A stretch of 64,000 nucleotides of DNA from Alphaproteobacteria bacterium. Lineage in GTDB: Bacteria > Pseudomonadota > Alphaproteobacteria > Bin95. A model generated the notes under the pieces. The model had not been told where the DNA came from, searched no databases, and saw only the letters and a list, made by a program, of their open reading frames with translations. Position numbers and translations under genes: made by a program. Location: positions 3,155,041 through 3,219,040 of the forward strand of contig CBDBIS010000005.1 of assembly GCA_965206075.1 (NCBI GenBank), read 5' to 3'. The first letter of the stretch is position 1; each line of letters opens with the position of its first letter. Shown here piece by piece: positions 40,333 through 56,224 of this stretch.

Positions 40333-40536
40333 TCAGTCCCGGTAGTCCCGCACCGCCTTCGGGTCGAGCCGGTCGGCCGGGACGAGGCGGTAATGCCGCT
40401 CTTCCACGACCTTCAGCCGGATTGCGGCCGCCTCAATCTCTTTGCGCTCGAATTCGAACTCGGTAATTCCCTCGCTGTAATGATCGAAAAATATCGTTTC
40501 GATTATCGCTCTATAGTCGACTCGCAGTTTAGCCAT
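40333..40536 (-). pseudogene. 67-codon ORF after dcm, possibly the N-terminal stub of the cognate restriction endonuclease
   Basis: MAKLRVDYRAIIETIFFDHYSEGITEFEFERKEIEAAA... The first ~40 codons are A/T-rich at position 3 and the remainder is G/C-rich like host DNA. Start overlaps the dcm stop by 8 nt. Confidence 0.35.
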
Positions 40537-41932
40537 AAGCTCTCCGCTCTGCGACGAATTCACGTTCGATATCCACCTGTTTGCGCTTCTTGGCGCCGCT
40601 CTTGCGATCACGGCGGTTGGGTCTGGCCTCTACGCCGAAATATTGGGCCGCGGCGGGAGCATCGAGCACTAACAGGGCAGTGTCGCCGAGCGGTATGGAA
40701 GCCTCGGGCCGGGCGGGGTTCGCACCGAGGGCCTCGACGACGTTGCCGGCGATCGCGCGGGCGAGCGGCGGGGGCACGGCATTGCCGATCTGGCGCGCAC
40801 CGTGCCATTTGGTGACATGGAAGCGGAACCAGTCCGGGAAGCCGTGCAGCCGGGCCATCTCGCGCACGGTCACGCAGCGGTCGTGGCGGTAGTGAATCGG
40901 CCGCGGGCTGGTGAAGGCGCCCCGCGCCCCGTCCGTGCCGGCGCGGAGCGTGTTCGAGACGCCTGTTTCCGCGAGCTTGAAGAACCGGCTGATCGGCTCG
41001 ACCGCGCCCGCTTCCGTTTCACGGAACCGGCGGCGCGAAATCTCCGTGTGCCGTGTGCGGGAACTAGCGGTCAGCAAGGCGGGATTCCACTCGCGCACAT
41101 AGCCGTAATGCCATGCGTCGTTTGCAAGGCAGCGCAGCGATGCCGCATAGGCCGAAGGCTCTCCGAACGTCCTCGTCTCCACGGAGTCGGAGCCGCACAG
41201 CGCGTCGAAACCCTCGGCGTCGGGAAGGTCGCCCAGCGCATCGGCACAGGTCGGCCCAACGGGTAGGGCGTCCACGCGCCGCCGCTTGCCGGCGATACCG
41301 GTCAGCGGTGCGGGATAGTCGGGCAGGCGCTCGCCCTTTCGCGCGCCGAGCAGGATCAACCGTTCCCGGCTCTGCGGTACGCCGAAATTGCCGGCGTTCA
41401 GGACCCGCCAGGGGACCCGCACCTCGTAGCCGGCGTCGGAAAACGCCTCGACAAGTTCGTCGAGGAGGGCGCGATGCTTGCCGACCGTCAGCCCTTTGAC
41501 ATTCTCGAAGACGAATGTGCGGGCGTCCAGTTCCGCAACGAGGCGCACGAACTCCCGGACCAGCCGGTTGCGCGGGTCGTCGAGAATGCGGTGGCCGATG
41601 AGGGAGAATCCCTGGCAGGGCGCGCCGCCGAACACGCAATCGACCCGACGACCGCCAAGTCCGGCCGCTCGCGCAATTCCGGCCCCGGAAAGGTCCTCTA
41701 CCGCGCAGGGCACGATGGCCGTCCGGGGAAAGTTGAACTTGTGGACCGCGCAATGCACCGGGTCGATTTCGACTGCGGCGGCGACGTCGAAACCGGCCTG
41801 CTCGAAGCCGAGGCTGAGGCCGCCGGCGCCGGCGAACAGGTCGATCCCGATGGGCCTCACAGTGCTGCGCTTCCGGATGCCGGTGCCATTCTGCAGGATA
41901 TTAGCGCGCCTACCGCTAGATGTCGATCGCAT
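40529..41932 (-). CDS. dcm: DNA (cytosine-5)-methyltransferase
   Basis: Motifs FAGAGG (I), GGAPCQGFS (IV), ENV, QSRERL and GNAVPP (X). Start at the internal ATG overlapping the vsr 3' end. Confidence 0.9.
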   Translation of the reverse strand: MRSTSSGRRANILQNGTGIRKRSTVRPIGIDLFAGAGGLSLGFEQAGFDVAAAVEIDPVHCAVHKFNFPRTAIVPCAVEDLSGAGIARAAGLGGRRVDCVFGGAPCQGFSLIGHRILDDPRNRLVREFVRLVAELDARTFVFENVKGLTVGKHRALLDELVEAFSDAGYEVRVPWRVLNAGNFGVPQSRERLILLGARKGERLPDYPAPLTGIAGKRRRVDALPVGPTCADALGDLPDAEGFDALCGSDSVETRTFGEPSAYAASLRCLANDAWHYGYVREWNPALLTASSRTRHTEISRRRFRETEAGAVEPISRFFKLAETGVSNTLRAGTDGARGAFTSPRPIHYRHDRCVTVREMARLHGFPDWFRFHVTKWHGARQIGNAVPPPLARAIAGNVVEALGANPARPEASIPLGDTALLVLDAPAAAQYFGVEARPNRRDRKSGAKKRKQVDIEREFVAERRAYG

Positions 41933-42341
41933 TTTCCGCGTTGTCCACAAAATCTTGTAGCCGTTTCGCCAGAACATCCGGGTCGCGGGTCTCGCATTGC
42001 CAGACGGTCAGCACGCTCCAGCCCAATGACTCTATTTGTTCCTTCTTGGTTCTATCTCTTTTCCTGTTTTCGTCAAGTTTGGGTTTCCAGTATTCGAGGC
42101 GGGATTTCGGCAGCCGCCCTTTCGGGCAGTCGTGGCCGTGCCAGAAGCAGCCATGCACGAAGATCGCCTTGCGCCGGGAAATGAAGGCGATATCGGGTCT
42201 GCCGGGGAGGTCCTTGCGGTGCAGGCGGTACCGGTAGCCCATGGCGTGCAGCAGCCGGCGCACGGCCAGTTCGGGTCCTGTGTGCTTGCTCCCGACCGCC
42301 TGCATGATGCGGCGGCGCTGCTCCGGGGTGCGCGTGTCCAT
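41916..42341 (-). CDS. vsr: very short patch repair endonuclease
   Basis: MDTRTPEQRRRIMQAV... and FVHGCFWHGH motifs. Start at the internal ATG of track ORF 41916..42410. Confidence 0.85.
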   Translation of the reverse strand: MDTRTPEQRRRIMQAVGSKHTGPELAVRRLLHAMGYRYRLHRKDLPGRPDIAFISRRKAIFVHGCFWHGHDCPKGRLPKSRLEYWKPKLDENRKRDRTKKEQIESLGWSVLTVWQCETRDPDVLAKRLQDFVDNAENAIDI

Positions 42342-42478
42342 CGCCTGCCGCCCGTCTCCCACCCACCGCCTCGATCGGGCGACGATAGGAGCCGCTGTCC
42401 CCCGCCGCAATGCTGCGCGCGGCGTCCATGTCCTCGACGGTTAGGGTCGGTAGATGAAAGCCCTTCCCCGGTTCGGGC

Positions 42479-42754
42479 TCAGGAATCGGCGCCACGCCCC
42501 TTGGCCAACTCGTAATCGTACTGAGCGGCTTCGGGGGGCGGCTCCGCCTGCGCGATGGCTTCGATCTCGGTGTCGGAAAGCTCCTGGACGGCAAGTGCCT
42601 GACGGTCCCGCCGCTTGAGGCGCTCATACTCCTCGACCGACAAGACCACCAGCCGGTCCCGGCCATTGCGGGTGATCGACAAGGGAGCCTTGAGCGCCTC
42701 GTTCTGGAAGCGCCCGAAATTCCGTTGGAACTCGCGCGACGTAACCCGTTGCAT
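42479..42754 (-). CDS. Phd/YefM-family antitoxin-like protein with no toxin gene adjacent
   Basis: 91 aa (MQRVTSREFQRNFGRFQNEALKAPLSITRNGRDRLVVLSVEEYERL...). Confidence 0.6.
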   Translation of the reverse strand: MQRVTSREFQRNFGRFQNEALKAPLSITRNGRDRLVVLSVEEYERLKRRDRQALAVQELSDTEIEAIAQAEPPPEAAQYDYELAKGRGADS

Positions 42755-42850
42755 GCCACCGGACCCGATTCGTCCTATGCGGATGATACACCGTATCGGA
42801 GGCATATGCCTCATGCCTGCAATGCAATGAGCATGGCGACAATTCCGTTT

Positions 42851-42995
42851 GCCGCCGCGCTTCAACCCTCTAATTTCCCCCGTCTCCCGCAGCCCCTTCC
42901 GGACGGCCTTGGCCGCATTCTTCCTGCCCGTGCTTGCCATGCTGGCAGCGTTCGGGCTGCTTTCCATCGACATGTACCTGCGGAGCCTGCCGGCC
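42851..42995 (+). pseudogene. duplicated 5' region of bcr (upstream ~56 nt plus the first ~29 codons), truncated
   Basis: Aligns with 43711-43853. Encodes (M)AAFFLPVLAMLAAFGLLSIDMYL.., then diverges and terminates. Confidence 0.65.
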
Positions 42996-43051
42996 TTCAG
43001 GCGGTTGTCGTCACTTGTCATATATTAACGCGCGGCGTTATCATTCACGGG

Positions 43052-43330
43052 ATGGCGCAATTCAAGAACAGGAGTACAGAGAAGGTCTTTGCCGGCGAGA
43101 TTGTGCGAAACCTGCCTCCGGCGATTCTGCGCCGTGCCCGCATGCGCTTGCAGCGGGTCGTGGCGGCGCGGGCGTTGTCGGACCTCCGGATTCCACCGTC
43201 CCACCGCCTTGAGGCCCTGAGCGGAAACCGCAAGGGACAACACAGCATACGCATCAACGACAAATGGCGGGTTTGCTTTCGCTGGACAGGGCAGGGGGCC
43301 ATTGAGATCGAAATCGTCGACTATCGCTGA
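43052..43330 (+). CDS. higB: HigB-like toxin (plasmid maintenance system killer, RelE/ParE superfamily)
   Basis: 92 aa (MAQFKNRSTEKVFAGE...LSGNRKGQHSIRINDKWRVCFRW...). Confidence 0.8.
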   Translation: MAQFKNRSTEKVFAGEIVRNLPPAILRRARMRLQRVVAARALSDLRIPPSHRLEALSGNRKGQHSIRINDKWRVCFRWTGQGAIEIEIVDYR

Positions 43331-43397
43331 AAGGGCCTCGACCATAGTCCGGCACCGTCATCGGCCCCTCTTTCGCAAACAGCCAACGGAGTTACCC

Positions 43398-43676
43398 ATG
43401 GCCGACGCAATTCATCCCGGGGAGCATCTGGCGGAGATTCTGGACGAACTCGGAATCAGCCAGTATCGCCTCGCAAAGGCCATCGGCGTCCCGCCGAGGC
43501 GCATCAACGAGATCGTGCATGCCCGCAGGTCGGTAACGGCGGATACGGCCTTGCGCGTGGGCAAGGCTCTCGGAACGACGCCCGACTTCTGGCTCAACCT
43601 GCAAGGCATATACGATCTCGACCGCGCCCGAAGCTCGCTCGACGTGAACGCTATCGAAACCTTGGTTGCGGCGTAG
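43398..43676 (+). CDS. higA: HigA antitoxin (XRE-type HTH)
   Basis: 92 aa (MADAIHPGEHLAEILDELGISQYRLAKAIGVPPRRINEIVHARRSVTADTALRV...FWLNLQ). Confidence 0.85.
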   Translation: MADAIHPGEHLAEILDELGISQYRLAKAIGVPPRRINEIVHARRSVTADTALRVGKALGTTPDFWLNLQGIYDLDRARSSLDVNAIETLVAA

Positions 43677-51798: not shown

Positions 51799-51834
51799 CG
51801 GACCCGCTCCCCGGCCGGCAGGGCCGCGCCGGAA

Positions 51835-52060
51835 ATGCTCCATGCGCAAGTCCTCCGATCCGGCCGGGCGGGGAGCCGGGCCGGCCTGATCGAACTGAAA
51901 CAGCGCTCGTCGCAGCTCCCCAACCTCGCCGTGGACTTCGGCGCCACGGACTTCCCCGCCGTCGCCCGCGCGCTCGGCGGCGAAGGCGGCGCTGGCGCGG
52001 GACCGCTTCACGATCATCGCCGCGAAGATCGGCCGCCGGGCCTATGACGGGTGGATTTGA
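51835..52060 (+). pseudogene. C-terminal remnant of a thiamine-diphosphate (acetolactate-synthase-like) enzyme
   Basis: ..NLAVDFGATDFPAVARALGGEG.., then a frame change to ..DRFTIIAAKIGRRAYDGWI*. No N-terminal part is present. Confidence 0.4.
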
Positions 52061-52097
52061 CGGGCGTTGAAGCGGGTCACCGCCAGACGCTACACGT

Positions 52098-54389
52098 CTA
52101 GGCTTGAAGGGCGTTGACTATCCGGAGAGTGCGCTTGATGTAGCCAGTTAGCTCTTGAGAATCGACCTGATCGGACATGGCGTCGGCCATGTTCTCACCA
52201 TGATGGTGCTCGCTGGTATAGTCGTTGATTTGGTCCAATTCATCGTACAGGTCTGCCGCAGGGTGCTGATTGCCTCCCTCGCGAATCTTCCGGACGATTT
52301 CGCCCAGCCAAACCTGGCCGGGCTGAAAGGAGGCCGGGTATGTGGTCCAGCAGTGGGTTTCAAGGACAAGGCGCATCTTGCGGATGAGGTCCAGATGGTT
52401 GCCCGCGCCTGTGTTTACATAAGTTAGCAGGTCGTCCATATCGGTTGCAGTTCGGCCTTGGCAAGCGCGCTTCAGATCTATGGGCGTGATCTTTGTTCCT
52501 TGGTGACGATGGTCGGCAAGGGCCAAGGCGATGCGCTCGGCCGTTGGCGCCTTGTCCCAGATCTGTTTGAGAAAAGTAGCGTCATGGGAAAGGACAATCA
52601 CCTGAGCGCAGTTCCGCGCTACTCTCGAGATCTCGTGAACCGTTTGACGGCGCCGAAAAGCATCGTGGCTGCTAAAGGGGTCGTCGAAGACGACAATCTT
52701 ATCATCAAGATTCTGGTCTTGTTCGAGATGAACGAGAAAGAAGGCGAGAGCAAGCGTCGTCCGATCTCCAGAACTGAGTGTATTCTTGAAGCTGGGCTGA
52801 TCGGGAGGTGTACGTTCATCGCCCAAGTCAATCGAGGTGTTGTTGATAACAAGCTGATAAGTCGATGCAGCAGCGCCGCCGGGATATCCGTGTTTAGTTT
52901 CCGTGATCCTGAAGCCAGCGTTGAAGACATCAAGGTAGTGATTGATCCGCTGTTCGTAAGGCTTCATAACTCTCCTGCTGTGCGTATTGAGCTGCCCGCG
53001 AACTGTGTCCTTCTTCCGGTTAATGGCATCCTTCTCGCCAGTCAGGAGAATGTGATCGGCACATAGCACAGCGACAGGATCAGTATGACGGACTTTTATA
53101 GCTTTACGGCGGATAAGTTCGCGCTCCGCGGCACGCAAGTCTACCGCACCGATCTCCCCCTTCTTGGCGGCAATTAGTGCATTGACTGCTCGGATTGCCT
53201 TATTAATTTGTTGCGCCTTGTCTTGAGCCGCGCCATAGGCTGTCACTGCTGCATCAAAGGCGGCATCCGGCTGGATGGGATCAAGAGGCATACGGTTCTT
53301 TCGTTCAAGCAAGGTCAAAGCAGCTTGACCGAGTGTGTGAATGGTATTCGGTACATCTTCGGGAACAAACAGGAGGTCTGGATCGAAGGCACAATATCGG
53401 TTCCAAAAGTCGATTGCGCCCTTGGCTTGTTCTGCTTGGATGCTCATACGGCCGATTGCGCCGTCGCCAAACTGCTCGATGATGTCGTTACGTTTGGCTG
53501 TGATTTCGTTCCGTAGGTCTTTATAGCGGTCACTGAACACGGCGCGATACGCAGCGATGAGAGGGAGGCCATGGATATTCTGGGCGCAGAAAGGACAGGT
53601 CCCGTCGTCGGCATACTCCAAGCCTTTGGCGATCCAGTTACCCCCGTCCGCTTCCATACCATGCGCCGCAAAATGCTCGGCGAGGTGGGTTTCGGCGTCG
53701 CGCGCTATGTCGTCGATGGTACGGGCAAGCAGCGACAAGAAGTCATCAGGCAGGGTAGGAACGGTAATCTCCGACAGTGGAGGGCGGTCATTGATCTGTT
53801 GGGCCTGACGGGCGGCCTCAACGGAGCGTTGCTGTTCGGTGATCTGCGCATCGATGTCAGGATTGGGCAGGAGTGCAATGAAGGTGTCGAACTTCATGCC
53901 TGCTGGAATGTGAGACTGGATGGCTTTGGTGGTAGTAGTGATCTCACTGGTTTTCTTACGGCTTTGCTGGGCAAGGGTGGCTTCTTTTTCGGCCAAACGT
54001 ACTCCTTGCTCTCCGATGATGACGCGGTAGAGGTTGCGTCTGTGGTCAATCTCGACCATTTGGCCGGAATGGACGTTCTCGGCAACAAACGTATCGTCAA
54101 AGATCATGATAGACGGATAGGTGGTGGACCACGCTGCGCCGTCAAAGTGCATCTGGCCGCTAGGGAACAACAATTCGACCATAGCCGGACTTTCGCCGCC
54201 GAGAGTCTGGCGACCCAGAATATGGTCTGGGTCGCTGGTTTTGAGCGAGCGGAGGATGGAACAAAGCGTGGTCTTTCCGAGACCATTGGCCCCGACTATC
54301 AGCGTGTGGCGGGAAAGTTCGGGATTTCCTGGGGCTACAGAATTTCGGAATCGCCCAACGTTTTTTACTGAAATGATCTTTCTCAGCAT
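52098..54389 (-). CDS. RloC/PrrC-like anticodon nuclease (AAA_13-type ABC ATPase with zinc-hook-like CPFC and C-terminal ACNase-like domain)
   Basis: 763 aa. Walker A GANGLGKTT, long helical insert containing DDGTCPFCAQ, signature-like LSSGDRTTLALAF and Walker B IVVFDDPFSSHD. The C-terminal R-x3-E (RLVLE) with a His 32 residues later matches the PrrC Arg320/Glu324/His356 spacing as I recall it. Visibly lower G+C than the flanks. Confidence 0.65.
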   Translation of the reverse strand: MLRKIISVKNVGRFRNSVAPGNPELSRHTLIVGANGLGKTTLCSILRSLKTSDPDHILGRQTLGGESPAMVELLFPSGQMHFDGAAWSTTYPSIMIFDDTFVAENVHSGQMVEIDHRRNLYRVIIGEQGVRLAEKEATLAQQSRKKTSEITTTTKAIQSHIPAGMKFDTFIALLPNPDIDAQITEQQRSVEAARQAQQINDRPPLSEITVPTLPDDFLSLLARTIDDIARDAETHLAEHFAAHGMEADGGNWIAKGLEYADDGTCPFCAQNIHGLPLIAAYRAVFSDRYKDLRNEITAKRNDIIEQFGDGAIGRMSIQAEQAKGAIDFWNRYCAFDPDLLFVPEDVPNTIHTLGQAALTLLERKNRMPLDPIQPDAAFDAAVTAYGAAQDKAQQINKAIRAVNALIAAKKGEIGAVDLRAAERELIRRKAIKVRHTDPVAVLCADHILLTGEKDAINRKKDTVRGQLNTHSRRVMKPYEQRINHYLDVFNAGFRITETKHGYPGGAAASTYQLVINNTSIDLGDERTPPDQPSFKNTLSSGDRTTLALAFFLVHLEQDQNLDDKIVVFDDPFSSHDAFRRRQTVHEISRVARNCAQVIVLSHDATFLKQIWDKAPTAERIALALADHRHQGTKITPIDLKRACQGRTATDMDDLLTYVNTGAGNHLDLIRKMRLVLETHCWTTYPASFQPGQVWLGEIVRKIREGGNQHPAADLYDELDQINDYTSEHHHGENMADAMSDQVDSQELTGYIKRTLRIVNALQA

Positions 54390-54566
54390 TGGGAAAATCC
54401 TGTTAATTTTTGACGTTCATGATGGCCAACAGCGGCGTTTGGGGGTAGATTACTGTGGTTGTACTATTTATCCGGGCGAGAGACAATGGAATCAGATAGC
54501 AGCAATTCTCAGAAGTCTTCGCCCTCGGTTCCGGATCATTGGTGGTAAATCGAGAAGACGCTACCT

Positions 54567-54595
54567 ACTATATTGAGGGGTACTTGCCTCATCAA
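54567..54595 (-). promoter_or_regulatory. candidate promoter for the RloC-like gene (TTGATG-17 nt-TATAGT)
   Basis: Reverse complement of catcaa (54590-95) and actata (54567-72), in the AT-rich region ~180 nt upstream of the ATG. Confidence 0.3.
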
Positions 54596-54898
54596 GAGTA
54601 TGGATAGCGACGGTCAATTGCAACCCTTCCTTTGGAACGCGGAATACCCGCGCGCTCCTCCTCGATCCGCGACCATCCGCCCCGTCAAGCGGCGGCTAAT
54701 TCTCATCGGGCGTCCTTGTCCACTATGAGCTTGAAGGTCGTTTCGCGGGCACGGCCCATTTCGTCTTCGAGGTCGGCAATCCGCGTCTGCCGGCCCCTGA
54801 TGCGCCCCCGTGCCAAGCGCTCCTTGCGGTCCAAGCCGTGGCGCTTCGGGAAGTGCCTCACCGGAGGGGAGCGCGCGTTCCCCGGTCGAACGGTATGG

Positions 54899-55183
54899 TC
54901 ACCGCGCCAGGTCCGTTCTGAGCGCCCGGGCTTCGTGTCCGAGCACGGCGCGAACCTGCTCCTCATCGACGCCCGGGAACCACTCGACGAACTCCCCGAC
55001 CGTAGCGCCGGCGGCCAGGTTCTCGTAAAGCGCGAACAGGGGAATCCGGGTGCCGGTGAAAACCCACGCGCCGCTGACCTTTCCGGGCGTCCGTTCCACT
55101 GCCGGGCATGTCGTCCAGTCGGTCACCGGCTCTCCTCCCCGACCCGCGACCTCGTTCCCCGAAAGGCCGCGGGGAAGCCTCAT
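54899..55183 (-). CDS. DUF433 domain protein
   Basis: 94 aa (..PAVERTPGKVSGAWVFTGTRIPLFALYENLAAGATVGEFVEWFPGVDEEQVRAVL). ATGA overlap with the upstream gene. Confidence 0.65.
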   Translation of the reverse strand: MRLPRGLSGNEVAGRGGEPVTDWTTCPAVERTPGKVSGAWVFTGTRIPLFALYENLAAGATVGEFVEWFPGVDEEQVRAVLGHEARALRTDLAR

Positions 55184-55392
55184 ACCGCGATGGCCTCGTC
55201 CCTGACGAGATGCAGCCTGACCACTCTCGGCGCTTCGTCTTCGTCGAAATGGCAAAGGACAGCGTCCCGCGCCATGGCCTTCAGGTCGTCCCAGTCGTCT
55301 CCCTGGGTGAAGATGCTGTGCCCGAGCGCCCGGGCGTCGTATCCGCCTTCGGCCGCCTCGGTGACCTCGAAGATGATCTCGGCCGGTCTCAT
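55180..55392 (-). CDS. HicB-like / UPF0150-fold small protein
   Basis: 70 aa (MRPAEIIFEVTEAAEGGYDARALGHSIFTQGDDWDDLKAMARDAVLCHF...). Confidence 0.5.
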   Translation of the reverse strand: MRPAEIIFEVTEAAEGGYDARALGHSIFTQGDDWDDLKAMARDAVLCHFDEDEAPRVVRLHLVRDEAIAV

Positions 55393-55658
55393 CCGGTGTC
55401 CTCCCTGTTGTCCGGGCGGCGCTCCGCAACGGCGAACCGGCGTCCCGCCGTCTCCCGCTGCGGCGCCGCGCCGGGCATCTCCTCCTCCGCCGTTGCGGCG
55501 GTTTCGGGCTTGTCCTGCGCGTAGCACATCATAAACGACGCTTGAAGCCGGGGCTTGCTTGCCCCGGCGGCGCCAGCGCTGGCCTGTGGCCTGTCGGGCA
55601 GGCGGATTCGAATGTCATACCGGTGGTCGTCGATCGGAGCCTGAGGCGGCGCCTCCCC

Positions 55659-55763
55659 CCGTCGCCCCGGCCGGAGCGGAGCGGAGAGCCGGGGCCCATC
55701 TCCCGCCTGTGCGATATGCGCGACGGTCCGGAGATGGGCCCCGGATCGGGTCCGGGGCGACGA
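55659..55763. repeat. palindromic GC-rich element (GTCGCCCCGG...CCGGGGCGAC family)
   Basis: Outer arms at 55661-70 and 55752-61. Inner arms GAGCCGGGGCCCATCTCC / GGAGATGGGCCCCGGATC. Confidence 0.65.
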
Positions 55764-55810
55764 TATGAGGCTTGGAGCTCCTTATGAGCCCGAAGTCGGC
55801 GCCGCCGGTG

Positions 55811-56224
55811 TCAGCCCCGCTGCGCCGCGAGGCGCGTTCTGGTGTCCAGGCCGTGGCGTTTCAGGAAGCGCTGCACGGTGGAGATGCCGAAGACGAGGCC
55901 CTCCCCGGCGAGCGCGGCCTGCAAGGCCCGGCCGCTGATCTCCGGCTGCTGCTCCAGAAGCCGGAAAATCCTTTCGCGGTGCGGTTCGATCCGCGAGTCG
56001 CGGCCGCCCCGCTTGTACGCCCGCACATCGCCATGCGCCCGGAAGCGCTGGACCCAGCGGAGCACGCTGGTCACACACACTTCGAATTTCTGCGCCGTCT
56101 CGCGGTAGCTCATGTTCCGCTCCAGCACCGCCGCCACCGCCCGGCGGCGCAGGTCCTCGCCCACCGTCTTGCCGGGCCTCCGGCCTCCCAATCCGTCCGT
56201 CATCCTGTCCGTCCTCCTTTCCAT
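55811..56224 (-). pseudogene. IS630-family transposase, N-terminal HTH fragment only
   Basis: ..MSYRETAQKFEVCVTSVLRWVQRFRAHGDV...GISTVQRFLKRHGLD.. No DDE domain follows. Confidence 0.65.

Follow-up and report, generated by a model that had tools for sequence, protein, structure and literature searches.

The closest described systems to the locus analysed here are the tRNA-cleaving proteins PrrC and RloC. PrrC, from the E. coli prr locus, is a protein of 341-416 aa with no coiled-coil/zinc-hook insert, and it always occurs within a type Ic hsd locus, which silences it (PMC1484252, PMC3025547). It carries the LARP motif KYGDSNKSFSY together with the PrrC box, nicks tRNA without excising the wobble base, and relies on the catalytic residues R320, E324 and H356 (32 residues from E to H), along with R349 and N352 (PMC1484252, PMC3025547). 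RloC was defined by Davidov and Kaufmann in 2008 (PMC2610378), with further work by Klaiman et al. in 2012 (PMC3458546). The family corresponds to COG4694, part of Pfam AAA_13, and its prototype is the 804-aa protein of Geobacillus kaustophilus HTA426. RloC proteins are recognized by ABC motifs, a CXXC and the arrangement R-x3-E-x36-52-H, often with Ser before the His, in a polypeptide of 658-897 aa (PMC2610378). Linkage to type I or III restriction-modification (R-M) was found in only 8 of 73 cases; rloC often makes up the whole cargo of a mobile element, and its product contains an internal switch made up of a zinc hook and a DNA-dependent ATPase (PMC2610378, PMC3458546). The C-domains of both PrrC and RloC have been assigned the HEPN fold, which has an all-alpha four-helix core and an Rx4-6H motif (PMC3710099).

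Within the window (the whole 64-kb stretch of DNA analysed), we identified an islet of ~2.6 kb at 52061-54640 that is very probably a horizontally acquired single-gene defence cassette encoding an RloC-family protein. A sequence-only reading of this DNA had described a low-G+C islet between GC-rich flanks, and the composition profile bears this out: G+C is 0.49-0.585 at ~52000-54800 (400-bp windows), compared with 0.68-0.785 in the left flank and 0.66-0.76 in the right, and 52061-54640 is the lowest-G+C stretch in the window (500-bp bins). Its only credible gene, as that reading also held, is a stand-alone ORF of 763 aa on the minus strand (52098..54389), assigned as rloC-like from the ORF itself, Pfam AAA_13, PADLOC PDC-S06, an AF2 model, residue conservation, BLASTP to a Rhodoferax orthologue and dN/dS. 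A 37-bp spacer (52061..52097) separates the convergent stop codons of this gene and of a thiamine-diphosphate (ThDP, TPP) enzyme remnant, and coincides with the left edge of the GC step; the right edge lies at ~54640-54692. The gene is accompanied by an AT-rich 5′ region (54390..54692, minus strand) that is kept with it in two related genomes, L001 (87%) and L011 (70%). AGGA is found 8 nt upstream of the ATG, and a promoter scan of the 5′ region gave one sigma70-like match, TTGATG-17-TATAGT at 54595-54567, which is not significant since 1.2 such matches are expected by chance.

Codon-position G+C in the rloC-like gene is 0.61/0.41/0.60, and GC3 of the neighbouring genes is 0.80-0.94; codons ending in A or T make up 39% of the gene vs. 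8-9% of two host genes. The G+C and GC3 values indicate that the islet DNA is foreign and horizontally acquired, as does the spread of the family across many phyla and its presence on 42 plasmids (genome scan). A repeat search of the islet flanks revealed neither target-site duplications nor terminal inverted repeats that were convincing; a direct repeat of 55 nt (71%; 54652-54706 and 55129-55183) encloses a variable segment containing a DUF433 gene, not the islet. An islet-free allele was not established, the 51886-to-54899 joint being recovered from metagenomic runs once at 90% stringency and never at 98%.

In the AF2 model of the 763-aa protein (pLDDT 81.5), the head is split in two, and both the insert and the C-domain are helical. 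Head lobe I (aa 1-105) contains Walker A (GANGLGKT, 33-40), and head lobe II (aa 493-636) contains the signature LSSGD (538-542), Walker B IVVFDD (565-570), the D-loop SSHD (573-576, in PFSSHD) and the H-loop residue H602. Between the lobes lies a helical insert of ~370 residues (aa 120-488) bearing the CPFC hook (265-268), and the all-helical C-domain (aa 637-763) carries the invariant residues R673, E677, H730 and E746. Conservation was assessed in 56 diverged relatives of 29-46% identity, giving counts out of 57 sequences. In this set, 98-100% retain G38/K39, S539/G541/D542, D569/D570, D576, H602, C265/C268, R673, E677 and H730, with C265 and C268 present in 57/57. The ABC-type ATPase head proposed from the letters of the sequence is thus fully represented, from Walker A to the H-loop, and the proposed helical insert with CPFC stands as well, the zinc hook itself being predicted. 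The modelled insert consists of broken helices with unequal arms (~133 and 212 aa) in which an antiparallel coiled coil is not evident, and the CPFC loop, located between insert helices, has low AF2 confidence.

The C-terminal 160 residues show 79% mean column identity in the clade. Alone, they gave no Pfam match, and Foldseek on the C-domain model gave no match at E <= 1e-3. The C-domain model is all-helical (pLDDT 75); its best geometric match is the HEPN protein 2hsb (TM 0.52/0.64), with generic helical bundles scoring alike. Other matches include HEPN toxins and Csx1, and none is significant.

Searches with the full-length protein place it in the RloC family. The sequence-only reading had pointed to Pfam AAA_13 as the profile to check, and the protein matches it at 109 bits (cut-off 36); matches to SMC_N and ABC_tran are weak, and NCBIfam returned generic ABC matches only. 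The best PADLOC model is PDC-S06 (PDLC04895; E 3e-63, query aa 1-687 vs. model positions 1-711 of 784), and JGI automatically names family members ‘wobble nucleotide-excising tRNase’. In BLASTP, aa 1-758 align to a 770-aa protein of Rhodoferax ferrireducens T118 with 30% identity (E 2e-91), a listed RloC orthologue (entry 39 of Table S1, PMC2610378). A helicase-related gene lies near this orthologue. The size of 763 aa, the ABC motifs, the CX2C insert and the triad R673-x3-E677-x52-H730 all agree with the published definition of RloC, with X = 52 at the edge of the range. Of the earlier label ‘RloC/PrrC-like’, the first half therefore holds, on the definers' own features and the end-to-end homology to a listed orthologue, and the second does not, given the size, the hook insert, the lack of a LARP motif and the lack of hsd. 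The orthologue list further includes a 763-aa alphaproteobacterial entry from Labrenzia aggregata and a Shewanella ANA-3 plasmid protein (PMC2610378). The latter does not occur within the first 62 kb of the plasmid record, Labrenzia aggregata and Geobacillus were not among the genomes returned by the genome scan for relatives, and no relative was found in the phage collection. Matches of ~400 aa to a C-domain profile were considered as PrrC-sized forms and rejected, being N-terminal truncations and one internal deletion.

A very unlikely alternative is that the protein is an SMC/Rad50-like ATPase belonging to some other kind of defence system, for example a Lamassu LmuB-like or another AAA_13 system; its C-domain would then be an interaction or DNA-binding module, with the effector gene located elsewhere. 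PADLOC matches to LmuB (E 3e-14) and mad3 are consistent with this, as are the best Foldseek matches of the whole model, which are SMC, Rad50 and LmuB heads, including Lamassu LmuACB chains, and the lack of a significant sequence or fold match between the C-domain and any nuclease. A PDB sequence search likewise recovered only Rad50 head motifs (signature/Walker B), and no PrrC or RloC structure. However, the LmuB-type matches are limited to the ATPase head and insert, whereas homology to the listed RloC orthologue runs from end to end. The C-domain also holds the invariant R-x3-E...H set as in RloC, dN/dS is well below 1, and neither LmuA/LmuC, which would be expected of a Lamassu system, nor any other conserved neighbour is present in 90 loci of rloC homologues.

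The sequence-only reading had placed the catalytic His 32 residues after R-x3-E, at a spacing equal to that of PrrC. Both the residues and the spacing are real, but the choice of H709 is not borne out: R673, E677 and H730 are each kept in 57/57 sequences, and H709 is His in only 27/57. H709 is thus probably not the catalytic His, and by these alignments the E677-H709 spacing most likely matches that of PrrC by coincidence. The histidine to mutate is H730 rather than H709. H730 is preceded by His (H729), not Ser, and has no Arg 4-6 residues upstream; the two Rx4-6H candidates, R703-x5-H709 and R673-x5-H679, each end in a His that is not conserved family-wide.

These residues also bear on the idea of a PrrC-type nuclease with the triad R673/E677/H709, whose type I R-M silencer is either gone or encoded at another place in the genome, leaving its latency unexplained. 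The E677-H709 spacing equals that of PrrC E324-H356, R703-x5-H709 resembles the R349-x6-H356 HEPN motif of PrrC, close relatives (>=60% identity) all have R703 and H709, and an R-M partner acting in trans could sit outside the visible 64 kb. Nevertheless, we regard it as highly improbable. Among the diverged sequences R703 is kept in 44/57, fewer than the 57/57 for H730, and the BLASTP alignment places no His of the Rhodoferax RloC orthologue at the H709 position. In addition, a length of 763 aa with a hook insert is the defining difference of RloC from PrrC, the best LARP-like match in the protein covers 3 of 11 residues, and hsd genes were neither found among 20 scanned window ORFs nor recurrent in the 90 loci.

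The left neighbour of the islet is the 3′ remnant of the ThDP enzyme gene (51882..52060, plus strand), identified from its translations and its homology to an L001 gene. It is 5′-truncated at ~51882 and carries an internal deletion and a frameshift, so that the enzyme's C-terminus is readable in two frames; alone, 51882-52060 gave no Pfam match. L001 holds an intact 535-aa TPP_enzyme_N/M/C gene, convergent to a 93%-identical rloC orthologue, whose 3′ end is homologous to the remnant, confirming the decayed TPP-enzyme gene proposed earlier. The remnant is also common to L011, and comparison of the sequences indicates that it is an ancestral neighbour of the islet, outside the islet itself. Upstream of the islet is a DUF433 gene (54899..55186, minus strand; Pfam DUF433, E 2e-12) in a slot that holds a HicA toxin gene in L001, and window positions 54693-55145 have no L001 match. 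Next to it, a 70-aa ORF (55180..55392, minus strand), a presumed HicB-like antitoxin with no Pfam match, is 98.6% identical to the ORF preceding HicA in L001. An IS630/Tc1-type transposase fragment retaining only the HTH (55811..56224, minus strand; Pfam HTH_32/HTH_28/HTH_Tnp_Tc3_2), common to L001 by blastn, is mobile-element debris adjoining the islet.

Relative to the L001 orthologue, dN/dS is 0.19 for the whole rloC-like gene and 0.03 for head lobe II, placing this intact gene under purifying selection. The locus is kept in the genome of the window and in its two relatives L001 and L011. The gene is extremely unlikely, then, to be a functionless relic, an unexpressed or inactive passenger of a decayed mobile element, as the surrounding debris (the truncated TPP gene, the HTH-only transposase fragment and the toxin-antitoxin pieces), the lack of a significant promoter match and the codon usage ill-matched to the host might suggest, given these dN/dS values, the retention of the locus, the intact 763-codon frame and the conservation of all predicted catalytic motifs.

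The RloC assignment bears on how such a protein could be kept latent. The absence of an hsd gene from the window had been noted before, and Pfam searches of 20 of its larger ORFs indeed found no type I R-M subunit. A C5 DNA methyltransferase and a Vsr-like gene lie ~10 kb from the islet (40529-42410). We considered this pair as a displaced rloC partner and rejected it, the methyltransferase being only 25-35% identical to those beside rloC homologues. In our survey of the 90 loci there was no universal neighbour, and type I hsd was not recurrent; the commonest neighbour was a serine recombinase (20/90). The puzzle raised by the sequence-only reading, namely what keeps a suicidal tRNase latent here, dissolves in the light of the literature, in which rloC is rarely R-M-linked: the absence of an R-M partner is ordinary for the RloC family, and latency needs no Hsd partner because the internal hook/ATPase switch would silence RloC. 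The paradox of such a tRNase lacking an hsd silencer had already been addressed by the zinc-hook/ATPase switch of the Kaufmann laboratory. Low expression is also probable, because of the high share of A/T-ending codons relative to the host.

By analogy with the RloC proteins of Geobacillus kaustophilus (PMC2610378, PMC3458546) and Acinetobacter baylyi (PMC3874168), the 763-aa protein is a putative tRNase. In its resting dimer, the nuclease would be silenced by the zinc hooks, and this lock would be released when the ATPase heads bind DNA ends and hydrolyze ATP. The C-domain would then cleave the tRNA anticodon loop on either side of the wobble nucleotide, resulting in its excision, and the ensuing halt of translation would arrest or sacrifice the infected or DNA-damaged cell. 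Latency would stem from the internal hook/ATPase switch, probably in addition to low expression.

At least 19 of the 90 loci adjoin C5-methyltransferase and Vsr genes (with or without a restriction endonuclease), Eco57I-type IIG pairs or N6-methyltransferases. Because of this, the ~760-aa RloC clade could conceivably serve as a back-up to type II/IIG, not type I, restriction, its head sensing phage DNA ends made by restriction, although we consider this unlikely; if true, the excision step on tRNA would be tied to restriction. Along related lines, R703-x5-H709 may supply a second catalytic His for one of the two wobble-excision cuts. An RloC assignment turns a gene otherwise annotated as “AAA family ATPase” into a candidate stand-alone RloC-type abortive-infection/translation-arrest gene that is testable, and the well-populated, highly conserved clade is a reasonable subject for phage-defence and nuclease-domain structure work.

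Compared with known systems, the protein shares with PrrC its layout, in which an ABC-type NTPase domain precedes a nuclease domain (here predicted) at the C-terminus, as well as R-x3-E with a His that would be essential, a D-loop (SSHD) resembling the SSLD of PrrC, and a proposed abortive-infection role by tRNA cleavage. It differs in being twice as large, with an NTPase domain interrupted by the 370-residue insert, and in having no hsd locus around it, as judged from the 20 window ORFs, the immediate neighbours and the 90 loci. With Rad50/SbcC, SMC ATPases and LmuB it shares a split ABC head and a long helical insert with a CxxC at its apex, but these proteins have no C-terminal R/E/H domain and use separate nuclease or kleisin partners, and no partner of this kind is conserved beside the rloC homologues of the 90 loci. 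PDC-S06 is the best-scoring PADLOC model and, like the islet gene, a single-gene AAA_13 system; it is itself a bioinformatic ‘phage defence candidate’ label with no mechanism, found only in catalogues within the literature searched, where we also found no tests of anti-phage activity for RloC or PDC-S06. These results indicate that PDC-S06 coincides in part with the older RloC family, at least in this branch. The link to the characterized Geobacillus and Acinetobacter RloC proteins runs via the listed, uncharacterized Rhodoferax orthologue, and the islet protein differs from RloC in the His preceding H730, in X = 52 at the upper limit (X = 40 in Geobacillus) and in the clade-specific extra motif R703-x5-H709. 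It nonetheless shares with RloC its size range, ABC motifs, helical insert with an invariant CxxC, R-x(3)-E-x(36-52)-H arrangement and rare codon usage, in a family that usually lacks R-M linkage and is commonly carried alone by a mobile element.

Base composition in 400-bp windows shows a trough of 0.49–0.585 G+C between ~52000 and 54800, flanked by 0.68–0.785 on the left and 0.66–0.76 on the right; in 500-bp bins the islet has the lowest G+C anywhere in the 64 kb (window mean 68.7%). The trough holds one long ORF (52098–54389, minus strand), which encodes a 763-aa RloC-like protein and bears out the sequence-only reading of a low-G+C islet with a single gene. G+C at its three codon positions is 0.61/0.41/0.60, vs. 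a GC3 of 0.80–0.94 in neighbouring genes, and 39% of its codons end in A/T, vs. 8–9% in two host genes. No repeats that define the islet were found flanking it. We conclude that the islet is genuine and was acquired horizontally as a single-gene cassette, and that its product is an intact member of the RloC family.

All motifs quoted earlier for the protein are found where expected: GANGLGKT (33–40), CPFC (265–268), LSSGD (538–542), IVVFDD...SSHD (565–576), and R673-x3-E677 with H709 at +32. The proposed similarity to Pfam AAA_13 also held (109 bits vs. a cut-off of 36, limited to profile positions 241–580), and the top PADLOC model was the candidate single-gene defence system PDC-S06 (E 3e-63, aa 1–687). 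A large protein collection contains hundreds of relatives of 759–765 aa, some of them named “wobble nucleotide-excising tRNase”, the RloC COG name, by the JGI pipeline. An AlphaFold2 model (pLDDT 81.5) shows an ABC head split into aa 1–105 and 493–636, a helical insert (aa 120–488) whose apical loop holds CPFC and is modelled with low confidence, and an all-helical C-domain (aa 639–762); its top Foldseek matches are the heads of SMC, Rad50, Lamassu LmuB, and JetC. Searched against 1.84 billion representative proteins, a C-domain profile matched 911 representative clusters, and in complete matches the domain is nearly always terminal in a protein of ~760 aa. Matches of ~400 aa were considered as a separate short form and rejected as fragments. 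One 395-aa protein from the representative search, P0152, derives from a family member by internal deletion: head lobe I and the first insert arm are fused directly to the C-domain, and the CxxC hook, signature motif, and Walker B are lost. Either a natural deletion or a chimeric assembly could explain it; if real, it would represent an unregulated nuclease form. At both loci of another member, P0029, the rloC-like gene shares its 3′ end with an overlapping 58-aa ORF (L008 6663–6839 and L009 10276–10452), and no equivalent was seen in the window.

The sequence-only reading had placed the catalytic histidine 32 residues after the glutamate, at H709, and conservation does not support this. R673, E677, R703, H709, and H730 are all invariant in close relatives (≥60% identity). 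Among 56 full-length relatives at 29–46% identity (counts out of 57), H709 is His in only 27 sequences and otherwise S/N/D/T, whereas H730 is kept in 100%, as are R673, E677, E746, the hook cysteines C265 and C268, and the core ABC residues G38, S539, G541, D542, D569, D570, D576, and H602. The Walker A lysine K39 is kept in 98% and R703 in 44/57. Since R673, E677, and H730 are kept throughout the diverged set, the family triad is read as R-x3-E-x52-H, and H709 is subfamily-specific. Essential nuclease residues of PrrC include R320, E324, R349, N352, and H356 (PMC1484252, PMC3025547), and a HEPN survey takes R349...H356 as an Rx4-6H motif (PMC3710099). Modelled alone (pLDDT 75), the C-domain gave no significant PDB match in Foldseek; the best geometric match was the HEPN protein 2hsb (TM 0.52/0.64), followed by HEPN toxins and Csx1, with cytochrome b562-type and vinculin-tail bundles scoring alike. 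The modelled geometry agrees with the HEPN fold assigned in the literature without proving it.

The islet was said to follow a decayed TPP-enzyme gene, and this is confirmed by a C-terminal tail readable across two frames (51882–52060, plus strand) and by homology to an intact gene, although this segment scanned alone gave no Pfam match. In L001, a related metagenomic genome, the corresponding locus has an orthologue of 93% identity, convergent with an intact 535-aa TPP_enzyme_N/M/C gene. The alignment of window 51882–54692 to L001 9697–12563 (91% identity) is interrupted by a gap within the TPP part, so the remnant is genuine; it has an internal deletion and breaks off at ~51882, where the window runs into a FAD_binding_2 gene. 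Just downstream of that gene, a 24-nt inverted repeat (51799–51883, 83% complementary, 37-nt loop) sits exactly at this breakpoint, and could be the terminator of the FAD_binding_2 gene or a REP-like element that took part in the TPP-truncating rearrangement. A second relative, L011, with an 83% homologue, matches the window in the 300-bp upstream region as well as in the 3′ end of the TPP gene; the rloC-like gene has therefore been kept vertically at the locus by a small clade ever since one insertion event.

The reading frame is intact with all motifs retained, and comparison with the L001 orthologue gave dS 0.178, dN 0.033, and dN/dS 0.19 (head lobe II 0.03; C-domain 0.28, from few changes). 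AGGA lies 8 nt before the ATG, and one sigma70-like site lies ~180 nt upstream, no more than expected by chance. In three runs of one metagenomic sample the islet is a single unitig (~51984/51995–54969) with depths of 7.5, 13.5, and 7.7, vs. 17–40 for most flanking unitigs, and loose ends show a strain with an intact TPP gene co-occurring in the same sample. A contig joining 51886 to 54899 was seen once at 90% stringency and was absent at 98%. Together these data indicate strain heterogeneity around the islet; an islet-free allele is a candidate only.

Upstream, on the same strand, are a DUF433 gene, a 70-aa ORF, an HTH-only IS630/Tc1-type transposase fragment, and a Methyltransf_17 gene. The 70-aa ORF is 98.6% identical in L001, where it precedes a HicA toxin gene; the segment adjoining the islet (54693–55145) differs, with DUF433 in the window vs. 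HicA in L001 (variable slot 54693–55186 vs. L001 9375–9697). A 55-nt direct repeat (71%; 54652–54706 and 55129–55183) encloses the swapped segment and duplicates the region around the DUF433 start codon, which suggests cassette exchange by recombination at the repeat. Between the 70-aa ORF and the transposase fragment (55616–55849), depth reaches 118–1004 in metagenomic runs X1–X6, several to many times that of neighbouring bins, with insertion variants at 55747–55748; in the community, this stretch acts as a multi-copy repeat or the end of an IS would.

In line with the sequence-only reading, no hsd gene was found in the window: Pfam scans of 20 of its larger ORFs showed no type I R-M subunit. 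A second lower-GC patch (40333–43676, G+C 0.60–0.68) contains genes for a C5 cytosine DNA methyltransferase (40529–41977, minus strand) and a Vsr-like protein (41916–42410, minus strand), a Phd/YefM-like ORF (within 42479–43021, minus strand), and a HigB/HigA-like pair (~43025–43676, plus strand). The patch may represent an orphan methylase or a type II R-M remnant with toxin–antitoxin modules; the methyltransferase is only 25–35% identical to those adjoining rloC homologues elsewhere.

At 90 collected loci, we grouped every ORF lying up to 5 kb from the rloC-like gene into clusters and checked recurrent neighbours with Pfam. These were a serine recombinase (20/90 loci), ParA (11), the replication initiator RPA (9), an Eco57I-type methyltransferase and type IIG enzyme pair (9; L006, L019, L030, L031, L033–L035, L050, L062), a C5-methyltransferase with Vsr (8; L002, L005, L012, L023, L027–L029, L088), and a tyrosine integrase (6); N6-methyltransferases adjoin the gene in L003 and L004. 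The 90 loci have no universal neighbour and no recurrent type I hsd cluster, and the R-M modules named above are type II or IIG, never type I. This proximity, taken as raw counts, may reflect a functional association or the usual clustering in defence islands. Members of the family are found in Alpha-, Beta-, and Gammaproteobacteria, Binatia, Nitrospinota, Acidobacteriota, Verrucomicrobiota, Planctomycetota, and Anaerolineae and on 42 plasmids, and in 0 of 50,697 phage records. Such a distribution is typical of a single-gene module that is autonomous and moves horizontally, often landing in defence or R-M neighbourhoods.

By analogy with work on the Geobacillus and Acinetobacter proteins, the resting enzyme would be a dimer locked by zinc hooks; DNA ends and ATP hydrolysis would release the lock, and the wobble nucleotide would then be excised from tRNA, halting translation. 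In the papers that we found, neither RloC nor PDC-S06 had been challenged with phage, a gap that is family-wide and not particular to the islet.

The analogy with PrrC does not hold. PrrC has 341–416 aa and a LARP motif, lacks the insert, and always lies within a type Ic hsd locus (PMC2610378, PMC1484252, PMC3025547). The puzzle of a missing hsd silencer likewise dissolves: type I or III R-M linkage is found for only 8/73 rloC orthologues (PMC2610378), no type I hsd recurs in our 90 loci, and Davidov and Kaufmann argued that an internal switch accounts for mobile elements carrying rloC as “the single cargo”. They defined RloC by ABC motifs, a CX2C-containing helical insert, Arg-X3-Glu-X36-52-His, and a length of 658–897 aa; in Geobacillus RloC, their mutagenesis showed that R692/E696/H737 are required for activity and that hook mutations activate the nuclease (PMC2610378). 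Table S1 of that study lists a 763-aa orthologue in Labrenzia aggregata and, in Rhodoferax ferrireducens T118, one of 770 aa next to a “helicase like” gene. By tblastn against a plasmid collection, we located the latter on plasmid NC_007901 (CDS 2313 bp, 770 aa), close to a helicase-related gene. The C-domain of the Rhodoferax protein contains R-x3-E and an “RFHH” aligned to H729/H730, with no His at the H709 position, and residues 1–767 of this protein align with aa 1–758 of the window protein (BLASTP; 30% identity, E 2e-91). The 763-aa protein has every sequence-level feature of RloC and is a full-length homologue of a listed orthologue, and thus counts as RloC at the sequence level; the gene of the islet adds one member to the already known RloC family.
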